From Candidatus Saccharimonadales bacterium (GTDB lineage: Bacteria > Patescibacteriota > Saccharimonadia > Saccharimonadales > 2-12-FULL-41-12), in the NCBI GenBank assembly GCA_041600715.1, contig JBFIJM010000003.1, forward strand, positions 3,345 through 67,344: a DNA stretch of 64,000 bases, given 5' to 3'. Position 1 is the stretch's first letter; the number at the start of each line of letters is the position of its first letter. Under the pieces are notes generated by a model. The model worked only from the letters and a program-made list of their open reading frames with translations, was not told the origin of the DNA and did not search any database. The position numbers and the translations under genes were made by a program. Positions 623-63,934 of the stretch are shown here, in pieces.

Positions 623-633
623 ATTCAATTTTT
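623..633 (-). promoter_or_regulatory. AAAAATTGAAT early-type promoter motif for the gene starting at 593
   Basis: The plus strand reads attcaattttt; the TTGA core is 29 nt upstream of the ATG. Confidence 0.5.
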
Positions 634-650
634 AAATTAGTTAATATACA

Positions 651-2135
651 ATGTCAGTCGGAAGTGTATTCCAGCTGATCACCAATAATGGTGTTCAAGA
701 TAAGTTACTCATGGCAACCGAGGCATTAAATGCCAGAATCAAAGAAATTATGAAGACGGATGTTGTTGTTAACGAAGACGGGTCAGCTCGGCGAGTAGGT
801 TCATGGAACAGTGACCTCCTAAGATTAGATAGAACACATACTGTATTTGTGGCCGGATATTTTAAACCATTTGCCTCAGCAGCATACGAATATATTAAAG
901 TGCCGGTTTCAGAGGGGCATACCGAGCTTGGAGAGTCTGTGCGATTTAGAATTCCGCAAGTAGGTCAGTTCTATTCTGATATGGTTGTACATATACAACT
1001 GCAAGGGTTAAGAGCAGTTAGTGCCCTAGACAAAGTCAGGTACGCGGCCTTTCTTGGGCATAAAATATTCCCAAAAGTTGCGTTTTCTATCAACGGCAAC
1101 CCTATTGACGATTATACAACCGACGAATATAATGCATATTGGCAATTTAAATTGCCAGCGCATAAACGTGCAGGATGGTTAAAAAATGTTGGTCAGGAAA
1201 TACCATCGCTCGGGTACTTAACACCAGACCCAACAACAGATGAATTTAGAGAGTATAGATGGATAGGAACCGGAAATCAAACATTTAAGAGAGAACATAC
1301 TACAGTTGATCTATGGGTACCTTTATTATTTTGGTTTAAAGATATGACTCAAGCCATTCCTAGTATGGTGATTCCGTATGGTCAAACATATGTAGACTTA
1401 AACTTAGCTAAGGCATCCGACCTGATTGCGTTTGCTAATTATGGAGGTGGTGGTGCGTATACATCTCCTAGCGTTAAGATCTGTAATTTATACGTTAACA
1501 ATATATTTGTGTCACCTGAACTAACTGATTTGTTCTTGAGCAAATTTGGATTCTCCCTAATAAGAGTCCATAAGAGACACACAAAGATGTTAATCTCTCC
1601 AGTAGGAACAGAGCGGCTGAATAACTTAACTTGGCCTATTGAGACAATGTATCTATGTTTTCGTCCCAGAGCAAACTTAATGGATAGTCAAGCATGGTAC
1701 AAATGTATGGCCCTAACCGACGCCGAAGTACCCACTCCAGTAGTGACCGGAGGACTCGCCCCAACAATATCCATCAACAACATTAACTATTACACTGAGA
1801 CACCTGTAGTTACCGAGTTACAACTGAAGGCCCATGACGTTGAAATTTATAAGGAATTTCCGAGCGCCTTCTTCAACCAGTATATTCCTTTTATCTTTGG
1901 TAACTATATTAGCACACCTACTGATGATGGGTGGTTCATGATGAATTTCAACATGCGTCCTGGTGATAGGAATCCAAGCGGGCATTTTAACCTGTCTCGG
2001 GCTCGAGAATTTTATTTGAGTTACAAATCGTCGTCGATTTCTCAGGCTAACCCTTCTGATTTGACAGTATTGGCCGATGCATTAAACTTTTTAGTGGTCA
2101 AAGGGGCGTCGGCCGTTCTTAAATTTAGCACATAA
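651..2135 (+). CDS. major capsid protein, ASFV p72 (B646L)-like double jelly-roll
   Basis: Three blocks match p72 as I recall it. MSVGSVFQLITNNGVQDKLLMATEALNARI matches MASGGAFCLIANDGKADKIILAQDLLNSRI. LYVNNIFVSPELTDLFLSKFGFSLIRVHK matches LYINNLFVTPEIHNLFVKRVRFSLIRVHK. PSGHFNLSRAREFYLSY..NFLVVKGASAVLKFST matches PSGHINVSRAREFYISW..NFLLLQNGSAVLRYST. ATATACA abuts the ATG. Confidence 0.9.
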   Translation: MSVGSVFQLITNNGVQDKLLMATEALNARIKEIMKTDVVVNEDGSARRVGSWNSDLLRLDRTHTVFVAGYFKPFASAAYEYIKVPVSEGHTELGESVRFRIPQVGQFYSDMVVHIQLQGLRAVSALDKVRYAAFLGHKIFPKVAFSINGNPIDDYTTDEYNAYWQFKLPAHKRAGWLKNVGQEIPSLGYLTPDPTTDEFREYRWIGTGNQTFKREHTTVDLWVPLLFWFKDMTQAIPSMVIPYGQTYVDLNLAKASDLIAFANYGGGGAYTSPSVKICNLYVNNIFVSPELTDLFLSKFGFSLIRVHKRHTKMLISPVGTERLNNLTWPIETMYLCFRPRANLMDSQAWYKCMALTDAEVPTPVVTGGLAPTISINNINYYTETPVVTELQLKAHDVEIYKEFPSAFFNQYIPFIFGNYISTPTDDGWFMMNFNMRPGDRNPSGHFNLSRAREFYLSYKSSSISQANPSDLTVLADALNFLVVKGASAVLKFST

Positions 2136-2165
2136 GTCGTTAAAAATTTTCATCTCCTAATATAC

Positions 2166-2609
2166 ATGTCGAAATCTAACTTTACAAACGCAAGATTTCC
2201 GAGTATCCGAAGTCTAAGCAAAAAATATGCAAAGACTTCAGGCAAAGGCGATGTAAAAATAATTGAAACACCATGCCATCCAGGGAGTGGTGGTAAACGT
2301 ATTTACATTACAGACGGCAAAAACTCTATGAATGTAATAGACTGTCTAAGATGTTCAATGATACAACACTATTTATATAATGGAAATGACTCCGAAACTT
2401 ACCGAACCGAAACTTTATGTATGTCGGTGCCATCCGCTGGATCGTCATTAGAGTCGCCCATGAGGTCAACGGTGGATTCGCCCATGGGGTCAACGGTGGA
2501 TTCGCCCATGGGGTCAACGAAATCGGGGTCAGTATCGTCAGTGGGTTCGTCGGTAGAGTCGCCCGTATCATCGGTGGGGTCGGAAGAGTTGCCAACATTT
2601 GCGGATTAG
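2166..2609 (+). CDS. hypothetical protein with a C-terminal Ser-rich tandem repeat (SPMGSTVD)
   Basis: 147-aa ORF with aatataca directly before the ATG and a 24-nt in-frame repeat around 2450-2520. The overlapping ORFs 2326-2598(-) and 2417-2620(+) are repeat shadows. Confidence 0.55.
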   Translation: MSKSNFTNARFPSIRSLSKKYAKTSGKGDVKIIETPCHPGSGGKRIYITDGKNSMNVIDCLRCSMIQHYLYNGNDSETYRTETLCMSVPSAGSSLESPMRSTVDSPMGSTVDSPMGSTKSGSVSSVGSSVESPVSSVGSEELPTFAD

Positions 2610-2633
2610 TTGTCGTCTAAATCCAATATAAAT

Positions 2634-2662
2634 TAACATAAATAACATAAATAACATAAATA
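2634..2662 (+). repeat. 9-nt tandem repeat (taacataaa x3) abutting the ATG at 2663
   Basis: Direct reading gives taacataaa taacataaa taacataaa ta ATG. Confidence 0.8.
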
Positions 2663-3085
2663 ATGTCAGGTAGCGATGTTGAATCTGAGTATGGCGGTAG
2701 CCAAGCACCATCTCGAAGTGATCGCGAAAATATTATAGTGCATGCTGATAGGCTACGTAGAAGCAATGTGCAAAAAAAAGAACTACGCGAATATGCGGTT
2801 GATATAGCCAGGCGGCTTAATGAGGAAATTCGCGAACGTCATTCACAAGGTCTCCATTCACTGGAGACAGAAATCCCCATCACGTTTACAGTGTCGAATA
2901 TGTCAAACTCAGATAGCCAAAGGATAATATGGTACACTGTACTTAAATGGTTACAGATGAAAACATACAGGGTGAGGTTAGATATTAAACGCGACTCATG
3001 TACTATCCATCTAACATGGATAAGCGAAGAAGAAGAATCATTGATTATTTTGCAGAAGCAATTTATTGCTAAATATTCCAAATAA
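2663..3085 (+). CDS. hypothetical protein
   Basis: 140-aa ORF with no recognisable motif; the antisense ORF 2839-3081 is shorter. Confidence 0.5.
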   Translation: MSGSDVESEYGGSQAPSRSDRENIIVHADRLRRSNVQKKELREYAVDIARRLNEEIRERHSQGLHSLETEIPITFTVSNMSNSDSQRIIWYTVLKWLQMKTYRVRLDIKRDSCTIHLTWISEEEESLIILQKQFIAKYSK

Positions 3086-3089
3086 TGAG

Positions 3090-62809: not shown

Positions 62810-62846
62810 TCCACAGAAGTACCCATAATTTTAATTCCATATAAAT

Positions 62847-62857
62847 AAAAATTGAAT
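62847..62857 (+). promoter_or_regulatory. AAAAATTGAAT motif
   Basis: The TTGA core is 31 nt upstream of the ATG at 62887. Confidence 0.5.
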
Positions 62858-62886
62858 CAATAATATCTATTATTACAAGTATCAAG

Positions 62887-63885
62887 ATGCGCCAAGGTTC
62901 CTCGCAATATTCTCAACAATACCGTCAAAATTATAATAACGGTAGTGGTGGAGGTCCTTTACGCAGCGGAAATACCGCTCTAGCTTACGAGCCAGCACAT
63001 ATCCCAGCACATAACTATCATCGTCACTATGATCCCCGACGCAATGGTGGAAGGGCTGAAGCTAATGGTATGGGTTCATGGGTTTCTACATCGACTAGTC
63101 AGGTCAGTCGAGACAGTCGAGACAGTCGAGACAGTCGAAGTGGTCCTCCTCGTAATAACCGAGGACCGCCGAGAAATAACGGACGTAAGTTTAGACACAG
63201 CGTACCTCCTTTGATCCCTCAAAGGCTAAGTGATATATTTGAATTCATACAATCTTGTAAGTTTGTCACTGATCAGACTCCGACAGATGAGGCATTTCAA
63301 TCATTTCTAGCAGCATTAAACGATGCCCAAGCCGCTAGCGCTGAGGAAGAGTTCTCCAGAAGAACAGTCTTCGAGTTGGTTCATGTTCCAGGAAACGGTG
63401 AAGAATTAACGTTTATGCACCTCATTCGATCTAATCCCCGGTTTAATAAGTTTATTCTTTGGACTATCGCACCGACAATCGTAACGTGGTTTAAGTTAGA
63501 AGATAAAGTCAAGCTTCAATGGGATGGCAAGCGTAATCGATATTATGGTCGGCTTGTGAATAATAGTAGCGAAACCCCGCAGGTAGACTCTAGTAAGTCT
63601 AAATCTCCATCTAGCAAACTTCCTGATCATACAGGACTCCCGTCATTCGAAGAGATTCAAATGATGATCAAAGTAAAAGAACAAGTTGACGAGGTTAAAG
63701 ACGCTGAGCAAGAGCAAGAAACATCTACTGAACAAGAAACATCTACTGAGCAAGAAACGAATTCTAAAATTAAGGTAGTCGGGAAGAAAAAGACTCATCC
63801 GATCAAAAAGGTGATGAAAAAAGATGATGATGATGATGATGATGATGAAGATGAAGATGAAGATGAAGAAGAAGATGAAGAATAA
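62887..63885 (+). CDS. hypothetical protein with an RG/SRD-repeat N-terminus and a poly-acidic tail
   Basis: 332-aa ORF with (SRD)n at 63106-63135, a (TSTEQE) repeat, and a tail DDDDDDDDEDEDEDEEEDEE. Confidence 0.6.
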   Translation: MRQGSSQYSQQYRQNYNNGSGGGPLRSGNTALAYEPAHIPAHNYHRHYDPRRNGGRAEANGMGSWVSTSTSQVSRDSRDSRDSRSGPPRNNRGPPRNNGRKFRHSVPPLIPQRLSDIFEFIQSCKFVTDQTPTDEAFQSFLAALNDAQAASAEEEFSRRTVFELVHVPGNGEELTFMHLIRSNPRFNKFILWTIAPTIVTWFKLEDKVKLQWDGKRNRYYGRLVNNSSETPQVDSSKSKSPSSKLPDHTGLPSFEEIQMMIKVKEQVDEVKDAEQEQETSTEQETSTEQETNSKIKVVGKKKTHPIKKVMKKDDDDDDDDEDEDEDEEEDEE

Positions 63886-63908
63886 GAATAGTAATAAATA
63901 TGTGTTAA

Positions 63909-63916
63909 TTTTTTTT
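63909..63916 (+). terminator. T8 tract
   Basis: It lies 23 nt after the stop at 63885. Confidence 0.5.
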
Positions 63917-63923
63917 CTTATCT

Positions 63924-63934
63924 AAAAATTGAAT
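63924..63934 (+). promoter_or_regulatory. AAAAATTGAAT motif
   Basis: The TTGA core is 25 nt upstream of the ATG at 63958. Confidence 0.5.

Follow-up and report, generated by a model that had tools for sequence, protein, structure and literature searches.

A putative early-promoter motif upstream of a subset of genes in an uncultivated member of the extended Asfarviridae

An A-rich motif with a TGA core, oriented at every site as the downstream ATG, precedes about 30% of the genes (variants included) in the 64,000-nt stretch of metagenomic DNA analysed here (the window), and is, with a probability of roughly 0.85, the upstream core element of early promoters in a cytoplasmic giant virus that belongs to the extended Asfarviridae. 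The consensus is (T/A)AAAAATTGAAT, with AAAAAATGAA and AAATTTGAA as accepted variants, and the position matrix from 20 window and 33 relative sites, wAAAAATTGAAT, displays the A-rich core and invariant TGA of an AAAA[T/N]TGAA-type consensus. In relaxed form (an A-run, 0-2 T, TGA, A/T), the motif stands at about 17-21 start codons, window gene starts being ORF calls made in the present analysis. The exact octamer AAAATTGA lies in sense and <=60 nt upstream of 10 of the 59 start codons (~17%), while 1000 dinucleotide shuffles of the same upstream regions give an expectation of 0.42 and a highest count of 3, so that the motif pointed out by the initial annotation does exceed AT-matched shuffles. 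By the same type of control, the relaxed pattern marks 18 upstream regions against 3.3 expected. Among all 7-mers, AAAATTG and AAATTGA show the highest enrichment upstream of genes (z about 7).

Many of the marked genes have recognizable products. The D5/C962R-like primase-helicase gene (39029-42721) has AAATTTGAA at 38980..38988(+), 41 nt before its ATG, with TATA elements in between, and a related motif lies upstream of D5 in nine related loci (L008, L010, L011, L012, L019, L021, L027, L030, and L031). Two copies of AAAATTGAA precede neighboring polymerase genes, one at 51505..51513(-), 17 nt before the ATG of RPB9-like 51159-51488(-), and the other at 52072..52080(-), 18 nt before that of RPB6 51539-52054(-); in both L008 and L010, the RPB9 orthologues keep A-run-TGAA upstream and the RPB6 orthologues keep the motif. 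The gene for an E2 ubiquitin-conjugating enzyme (52562-53203) follows AAAATTTGAA at 52525..52534(+) by 28 nt, the motif lying within the last codons of 52094-52540, and its orthologue in L008 has AAAAATTGAA upstream. These four identities, already proposed from the letters alone, were confirmed, that of D5 by Pfam and by a PDB match to ASFV C962R (1e-117). A TBP-like gene, 6093-7286(-), carries the AAAAAATGAA variant at 7310..7319(-), 24 nt before its ATG and followed by TATACATT, an arrangement kept by its orthologues in L002 and L004. The divergent intergenic region at 54582..54593 contains a palindrome, TTCAAATTTGAA, which reads as AAATTTGAA in both directions, facing TFIIB 53242-54525(-) over 57 nt on one side and 54639-56921(+) over 46 nt on the other; the TFIIB ATG also carries TATATATAATATAATG. 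A AAAAAATGAA(AAGC) variant at 47426..47435(+) stands 28 nt before the ATG of cobalamin adenosyltransferase-like 47463-48239, and a AAAAATTGAA core at 624..633(-) stands 31 nt before that of 3-593(-), an unknown protein encoded divergently from the capsid gene; the orthologues of 3-593(-) in L002, L004, L006, and L007 retain the motif upstream.

The remaining copies precede other reading frames. On the forward strand these are AAAAAAAATTGAT at 9940..9952, 28 nt before the ATG of an 88-aa ORF (9980-10246) and overlapping the stop codon of 9273-9941; AAAAAAATTGAA at 27141..27152, 29 nt before the ATG of 27181-27699 and within the last codons of 26616-27155; the AAAAATGAA variant at 33307..33315, 39 nt before the ATG of 33354-34640, with TATACAC 16 nt downstream; and AAAAATTGAA at both 62847..62856, 31 nt before the ATG of 62887-63885, and 63924..63933, 28 nt before the ATG at 63961 of a gene that continues past the window edge. 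The last of these comes after a T8 run (63909-63916), itself 3' of the 62887-63885 stop. On the reverse strand, A9TTGAT is followed by T9 at 43930..43943, 43 nt before the ATG of 42826-43887(-), and by T8 at 44855..44868, 23 nt before that of 43981-44832(-), and AAAAATTGAA at 46725..46734 is separated from the ATG of 46022-46639(-), 86 nt away, by a tandem array of ten 7-nt units (46651-46722). The AAAAAAAAAATGAT variant at 30235..30248(-), before 29441-30208(-), and AAAAAATTGAT at 30923..30933(-), 27 nt before the ATG of 30267-30896(-), are each followed by T8.

All 18 positions listed in the initial annotation bear the sequence described, oriented as a downstream ATG, except that the site given as 30228 is a TGA variant, AAAAAAAAAATGATT, and not TTGA. 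The 30228/30235 and 30916/30923 promoters derive from one duplication (~70 nt identical) and are not independent, and two sites precede short ORFs: AAAAATTGAA at 37080..37089(+), from which a 29-codon ORF (37114-37203) is 25 nt away and the next real gene (37225-38145) 135 nt away, has a doubtful target, and AAATTTGAA at 45603..45611(+), which overlaps the stop of 45326-45604 and lies 19 nt before an in-frame ATG at 45630 (46 codons), an uncertain one. The sites at 7310-7319(-) and 33307-33315(+), and perhaps one more at 61108-61114(-), were absent from that list. The distance to the ATG, described there as short and fixed, is indeed short, with 17-46 nt between TGA and ATG at 19 of 22 sites, but it is a range, and gaps of 57 and 86 nt fall outside it.

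What is constrained is the spacing relative to a TATA-like block. A G/C-free AT block lies 3' of the motif, and TATA starts 12-15 nt past TGA in the window and 15-18 nt past it in the relatives. Genes without the motif mostly carry only a TATA/ATATAC element adjoining the ATG; such an element is also present in 9 of 17 motif-bearing genes, so that the two promoter classes are not cleanly separable from sequence. Runs of T are also unevenly distributed: coding sequence contains 2 sense T>=7 runs against 79 A>=7 runs, T>=7 occurs within 60 nt past the stop in 17 of 58 genes, with 8-13 nt as the commonest distance, and five motif copies are flanked by long T runs resembling poly-T terminators. 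Together, the AT block and the placement of the poly-T runs fit the layout of early promoter, initiator, and poly-T terminator in ASFV and poxviruses.

The predicted promoter class of individual genes is shown to be conserved by comparison with related metagenomic genomes that share 30-57% protein identity with the window. Of 15 orthologues of window genes that bear the motif, 13 have it upstream, as against 2 of 26 orthologues of motif-less genes (Fisher p = 5e-7). It is retained at the orthologues of D5, RPB6, RPB9, E2, the TBP-like gene, and one unknown gene, amid intergenic DNA that is unalignable between window and relatives; the genes for capsid, VLTF3, M1249L, A32 ATPase, and a B962L-like helicase, which are without the motif in the window, are also without it in the relatives. 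Sense enrichment recurs in each of six related genomes, and the motif is also frequent in another 19 metagenomic loci linked to D5.

Its encoded proteins place the window in an uncultivated lineage of the extended Asfarviridae. The capsid protein matches that of faustovirus (5j7o) at 1e-85, ASFV p72 at 1e-69, and PBCV-1 at 8e-7, the D5 primase has its nearest match in ASFV C962R, and a further ORF finds one in ASFV M1249L (6e-20), homologies which together supply the hallmarks of the extended Asfarviridae (Asfuvirales). A Mimiviridae lineage was rejected, since the same three proteins indicate ASFV/faustovirus. Genes for transcription in the window include RPB6, RPB9, TFIIB, the TBP-like protein, and VLTF3, and those for capping enzyme and poly(A) polymerase are present in the relatives' loci. 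A D6/A7-type factor was not recognizable among the ORFs of the window, which is part of a genome; its ORFs of 1496, 815, and 760 aa gave no Pfam or PDB match, and an 820-aa helicase is DEAH/Prp43-like.

In vaccinia, the early core or upstream control element is bound by VETF (D6/A7). By analogy with ASFV and vaccinia, the motif would be bound by a virion-packaged early transcription factor, a heterodimer homologous to vaccinia D6/A7 and ASFV D1133L/G1340L, which would position the viral multisubunit RNA polymerase at these promoters. Transcription would start about 14-19 nt downstream of TGA, at the AT-only TATA(C)-like initiator, leaving very short leaders, and transcripts would end at T runs of at least 7 nt shortly past the stop codon; motif-less genes with TATA/ATATAC near the ATG would belong to a late or other class. 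The early timing of the motif genes, the position of the start site, and the identity of the binding factor are all predicted in this way from related viruses, and D1133L/G1340L has been proposed to bind the ASFV early promoter (PMC7163114, PMC7458399).

The timing is also where the strongest of the alternatives arises, namely that the promoter element is not specific to early genes and belongs to a general or intermediate class, or is read by viral TBP/TFIIB and not by a D6/A7-type factor. ASFV C962R (D5) and C147L (RPB6) are scored late by CAGE, and the motif therefore does not map one-to-one onto ASFV timing; the ATG-proximal TATA of nine motif genes and the failure to identify the early factor among the window ORFs would likewise suit such a reading. 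Against it, this core is associated with the early genes of ASFV, vaccinia, mimivirus, and pacmanvirus (PMC7163114, PMC5294985, PMC11788076), the five motif-less genes named above lack it here and in the relatives alike, and the TBP-like gene carries it, as would fit a TBP synthesized early to act later. This alternative is unlikely. Appreciably less probable still is that the motif is a 3'-end signal of the upstream gene, for termination or polyadenylation, and not a promoter of the downstream one. As the initial annotation had observed, several copies (9940, 27141, 45603, and 52525) share sequence with the final codons of the preceding gene, and five are flanked by terminator-like T runs; however, at least six (624, 30923, 38980, 47426, 52072, and 54582) lie between divergent genes where no gene ends, the orientation is always that of the downstream ATG, conservation follows the orthologue of the downstream gene even with different neighbors, and it is the T runs, not the TTGA core, that sit 8-13 nt past stops. 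That the motif is a mere by-product of AT-rich, A-run-rich intergenic DNA can draw on the 76% A+T of upstream regions and on a mild whole-window excess of AAAATTGA (16 matches against 9.97 +/- 3.3 expected, a count reached by 8 of 100 whole-window shuffles), but 10 of these 16 matches fall within the 3.1% of strand-positions that are sense-upstream of an ATG, and this reading is effectively refuted by the upstream shuffles, by the strong sense bias of the motif, by retention at orthologues amid unalignable flanks, and by recurrence in six related genomes. The early promoter of Mimiviridae/ASFV type put forward in the initial annotation has strand, spacing, orthologue conservation, poly-T signature, and lineage in its favor.

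A near-identical early motif, reportedly of the exact form AAAATTGAAT, was put forward for ASFV in the initial annotation. The ASFV early promoter motif (EPM) spans 19 nt, lies 9-10 bp upstream of the start site, is related to the vaccinia early element, and is accompanied by a TA*NA initiator and a poly-T terminator (Cackett et al. 2020, PMC7163114). Besides the lineage, indicated by capsid, C962R, and M1249L homology, the window shares with ASFV an A-rich TGA core in sense orientation, a short, constrained distance to a putative AT-rich initiator, very short predicted leaders, and T>=7 runs that are likely terminators and are avoided in coding sequence. The predicted gene classes also largely correspond: the ASFV orthologues of TBP (B263R), E2 (I215L), and RPB9 (C105R) are early, as the motif would suggest, TFIIB (C315R) has dual start sites, early and late, and capsid, M1249L, and B962L belong to another class, D5 and RPB6 being the exceptions. 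The motif-start spacing is mapped in ASFV; the TATA proxy in the window, 12-15 nt past TGA, would be compatible with such spacing. In pacmanvirus, and less strongly in faustovirus and kaumoebavirus, AAAATTGA has been described as early and TATATA as late (PMC11788076). Pacmanvirus resembles the window in the octamer, the TATATA-type element near the ATG, the extended family, and purely computational evidence; it differs in having the octamer at 44% of its genes within 100 nt, against the lower shares in the window given above. The window lineage is a branch separate from all three of these viruses and uncultivated, with a capsid protein of ~494 aa against ~645 aa.

More distant parallels are found outside the family. 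The vaccinia early core, AAAANTGAAAA, lies at -13 to -25 (PMC5294985); at 7310 and at 47426, the window has AAAAAATGAAAA variants that are identical to it in every letter, the predicted distance from TGA to the start is similar, and T-run terminators are shared, whereas the window prefers TTGA over NTGA, followed by AT, and belongs to a different virus order. That AAAATTGA is the mimivirus early motif, as the initial annotation held, agrees with its report within 150 nt of the ATG at ~45% of mimivirus genes (PMC5294985). Octamer, sense orientation, and position upstream of genes are the same in both, as is the association with an early class, predicted for the window, but the share of genes is lower in the window, the late motif differs, and the window motif, at 17-46 nt before its ATG, has a TATA element of ASFV-like type as its partner. 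The Mimiviridae early promoter octamer was reportedly presented by Suhre et al. in 2005. The DNA polymerase promoter of invertebrate iridescent virus 6, AAAATTGATTATTTGTTTT at -19 to -2 (PMC5294985), has the same AAAATTGAT start, near the start site and upstream of a replication gene; it belongs to another family, is a single experimentally dissected promoter, and has its motif at a much shorter distance from the start site.

Promoters of this type are on record for ASFV, pacmanvirus, poxviruses, and mimiviruses, and the motif is most likely one of them, which makes the finding sound but unremarkable; the pacmanvirus motif pair is already published, so that the window adds one more example to a known type, and no new mechanism is revealed. 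Its value is that an environmental asfarvirus relative, represented by metagenomes alone, appears to keep early promoter, TATA-like initiator, and poly-T terminator intact, which strengthens the case for the promoter being ancestral in giant viruses and in practice offers a means of predicting early versus late genes and correcting start-codon calls in such assemblies. A bolder reading, which we regard as tentative, is that the clade has an early class conserved gene by gene across deep divergence, in which D5 and RPB6 differ from ASFV, and that a subset of its promoters, joined to T runs on both strands (A9-TTGA-T9), makes compact units which might terminate one transcript and initiate the following one. 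If true, promoter class from metagenomic genomes could predict temporal programmes, and replication and polymerase genes would prove to have been rewired within the order.

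The window is gene-dense, with a G+C content of 38% and 58 genes (our own ORF-based calls) separated by gaps of mostly 20-100 nt. In a PDB search, its capsid protein (651-2135) is closest to the faustovirus MCP (1e-85) and ASFV p72 (1e-69), with chlorovirus Vp54 matched only at 8e-7, while its 1230-aa D5-like protein matches the ASFV primase C962R at 1e-117 and ORF 20962-24711 matches ASFV M1249L at 6e-20. The transcription genes comprise RPB6, an RPB9-like zinc ribbon, TFIIB, a TBP-like protein, and VLTF3, and further genes encode an A32-type ATPase, a DEAH helicase, an ERCC4 nuclease, and an E2 ubiquitin-conjugating enzyme. 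Judged from these matches and the encoded gene set, the window is assigned to an uncultivated member of the extended Asfarviridae, of whose genome it is a part. An Rfam search of the window returned no match, and self-BLAST revealed no paralogue families among the genes that carry the motif considered here, an A-run followed by a TTGA core (AAAATTGA-type) in sense upstream of the ATG.

Every site listed in the initial annotation, which had noted about 17 such genes, has the sequence ascribed to it and points to a downstream ATG, with small corrections only at 30228, 37080, 45603, 46726, and 54582. The motif at 30228 has an ATGA variant in place of the claimed TTGA core, and those at 37080 and 45603 are genuine but followed by very short ORFs only. 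At 46726, the distance to the ATG is 86 nt, the two being separated by a tandem array (7 nt x10), and the motif at 54582 is palindromic and points towards each of the two divergent genes. Two variants had been missed, one at 7310-7319 before the TBP-like gene and the other before 33354. The spacing, described as short and fixed, is indeed short, with a TGA-to-ATG gap of 17-46 nt at most sites, but it is a range. The motifs at 30228 and 30916 belong to a single ~70-nt duplication: genes 29441-30208(-) and 30267-30896(-) share ~70 identical nt over the promoter and first codons (30140-30248, 30830-30933), where a long GGT repeat adjoins two overlapping open reading frames, and their likeness is confined to this 5' end, no BLASTP similarity being found otherwise. 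The minus-strand promoters of RPB9 (51505-51525) and RPB6 (52072-52092) are identical over 18 nt (ATATGTATTAAAATTGAA), which exceeds the length of the general motif.

Counted across the entire window, the octamer exceeds chance only slightly (16 observed, 9.97 expected); 10 of these 16 copies fall within the 3.1% of strand-positions that lie sense-upstream of a start codon. The proposed over-representation before ATGs is borne out, in that 10 of 59 upstream regions contain the octamer compared with 0.42 in dinucleotide shuffles of the same regions (76% A+T; maximum 3 in 1000), and the relaxed pattern (A-run, 0-2 T, TGA, A/T) occurs 18 times against 3.3. In an unbiased 7-mer scan, AAAATTG and AAATTGA rank first (z ~7).

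Related metagenomic genomes were compared at loci around the capsid and D5 homologues, which are 50-56% and 43-47% identical to those of the window, respectively. Intergenic DNA cannot be aligned among these genomes, and the motif is nonetheless found upstream of orthologues of motif-bearing genes: in 4/4 for gene 3-593, in 2/2 for the TBP-like gene (with a conserved TATACATT), in 2/3 for D5 (the third has AAAAGTGAAAA), in 2/2 each for RPB9 and RPB6, and in 1/1 for E2. The sole TFIIB orthologue has only a G-containing variant, AAAAAGTGAAAG, and is scored as lacking the motif. Conversely, the motif is absent from 24 of 26 orthologues of motif-less genes, including the capsid gene, VLTF3, a resolvase-like gene, and several unknowns. 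The resulting contingency (13/2 vs 2/24) gives a Fisher p of 5e-7, which is indicative only, as the count was made by hand and the genomes are mutually related. Enrichment in sense orientation holds in 6/6 related genomes, and the motif is common upstream of genes, often D5 too, in 19 further metagenomic giant-virus loci (D5 identity 26-45%). The latter came from an alignment-based D5 scan, which gave only metagenomic genomes and no ASFV reference; a single-protein D5 scan of viral contigs yielded no match.

An alignment on TGA of 20 sites in the window and 33 in relatives gives the identical consensus wAAAAATTGAAT for both sets, followed by a variable spacer and then a block nearly devoid of G and C, within which the distance from TGA to the start of TATA/TATAC is 12-15 nt for the window and 15-18 nt for relatives. 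Independently of the upstream motif, 41 of 59 genes have a TATA/ATATAC element whose end lies 0-12 nt ahead of the ATG, so that leaders would be very short; examples, often preceded by a T run, lie before 651, 2166, 10277, 20962, 25252, and 49868. This element looks like the late promoter or initiator of ASFV and pacmanvirus. Sense runs of T>=7 number 2 in coding sequence vs 79 A runs, and they occur within 60 nt past 17 of 58 stop codons, most commonly 8-13 nt past the stop (for example 4591-4597, 10255-10263, 24721-24728, 42732-42738, 48253-48259, 53217-53223, and 56935-56941), a distribution that bears the signature of a predicted ASFV/poxvirus-like poly-T terminator. At 43922-43951, 44848-44868, 30228-30248, 30916-30933, and 9940-9957, the promoter core stands between long homopolymer runs (A8-9 TTGA T8-9), giving each strand a T run; such cassettes could serve as one compact unit both to terminate transcripts, whether upstream or convergent, and to initiate the next gene.

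The motif is best read as the core of an early-class promoter. The Mimiviridae/ASFV-type interpretation put forward in the initial annotation is supported by strand bias, orthologue conservation, and an ASFV-like layout, with the timing suggested by analogy to ASFV orthologues. By the same analogy, a packaged early transcription factor of the D6/A7 type (the vaccinia heterodimer; D1133L/G1340L in ASFV) would read the core and set the viral polymerase at the downstream initiator. Such a factor was not recognized among the window ORFs, which is uninformative given that the window covers only part of the genome; as for candidates, the 820-aa helicase is DEAH/Prp43-like, and neither the 815- and 760-aa ORFs nor, apart from a weak ubiquitin-like stretch, the 1496-aa ORF gave a match. 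In ASFV CAGE data, TBP (B263R), E2 (I215L), and C105R are early, the capsid, M1249L, and B962L are late, and TFIIB (C315R) has distinct start sites for the early and late phases; the window TFIIB, with both the motif and an ATG-proximal TATATA, agrees with this. D5 and RPB6 do not conform: both have the motif in the window and in relatives, but correspond to C962R and C147L, scored late in ASFV. It is possible, though improbable, that the motif acts as a promoter element without being restricted to early genes. A 3'-end signal of the upstream gene is unlikely, since no gene ends at the six or more copies located between divergent genes, the orientation is always that of the downstream gene, and the terminator-like behaviour comes from adjacent T runs and not from the TTGA core; this reading was rejected on the divergent-region sites and orthologue conservation. 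The matched shuffles, together with strand bias and conservation among orthologues, exclude a chance origin as a pure artefact of composition.

The early-class promoter thus recognized has close precedents. In ASFV, the early promoter motif lies 9-10 bp before a TA*NA initiator, late genes have a TATA initiator, and termination is at poly-T (PMC7163114, PMC7458399), and the window shows the same layout of motif, TATA-like block, and poly-T. Vaccinia early genes are laid out alike, their core AAAANTGAAAA lying at -13 to -25 (PMC5294985), and the ASFV early motif has been explicitly related to this vaccinia element (PMC7163114). The octamer AAAATTGA is, as initially claimed, the classic mimivirus early motif (PMC5294985); it has also been reported as the early motif of pacmanvirus, alongside a late TATATA, in a study that notes it in ASFV as well and, to a lesser degree, in faustovirus and kaumoebavirus (2025 paper, PMC11788076). 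Given these reports and the relation between the ASFV and vaccinia motifs, the finding is therefore a known promoter type, correctly recognized in a branch of the same virus group that is new and uncultivated. Modestly new are the retention of promoter class gene by gene among genomes from metagenomes, the presence of the motif at D5 and RPB6 in contrast to ASFV timing, and the compact A-run/TTGA/T-run cassettes that may unite terminator and promoter.

Several further features deserve mention. A cobalamin adenosyltransferase-like gene (47463-48239, +; Pfam 2.7e-37), unusual in a giant virus, has a promoter core, AAAAAATGAAAAGC, that recurs unchanged at 7310 before the TBP-like gene. The 1496-aa ORF 10277-14767 (+) represents a conserved ~1450-aa family with members found exclusively among related giant viruses from metagenomes, shows synteny with the capsid region of relatives, and has an invariant C-x-P-C-C cluster; neither it nor a 16-member family profile matched Pfam or PDB entries, except for a weak ubiquitin-like stretch (residues ~165-215). 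In relatives, a second, longer capsid paralogue (~600 aa) lies a few kb from the main capsid gene (L002 5059-6867, L004 5309-7114, L006 6048-7877), and none is found near the capsid gene in the part of the genome covered by the window. Perfect or near-perfect intergenic tandem arrays occur at 46651-46722, 59289-59414, 3090-3155, 25144-25249, 42753-42812, 51102-51177, and 2628-2663, and in one array (20 nt x6.3), upstream of gene 58334-59290(-), a unit containing TATATA is repeated six times. In two relatives (L004 7768-8577, L009 151-1218), the called start codons lie 2-3 nt after the motif, so the annotated ATGs are probably wrong and the true starts would lie downstream of the TATAC block; the motif could serve to correct gene starts in such assemblies.
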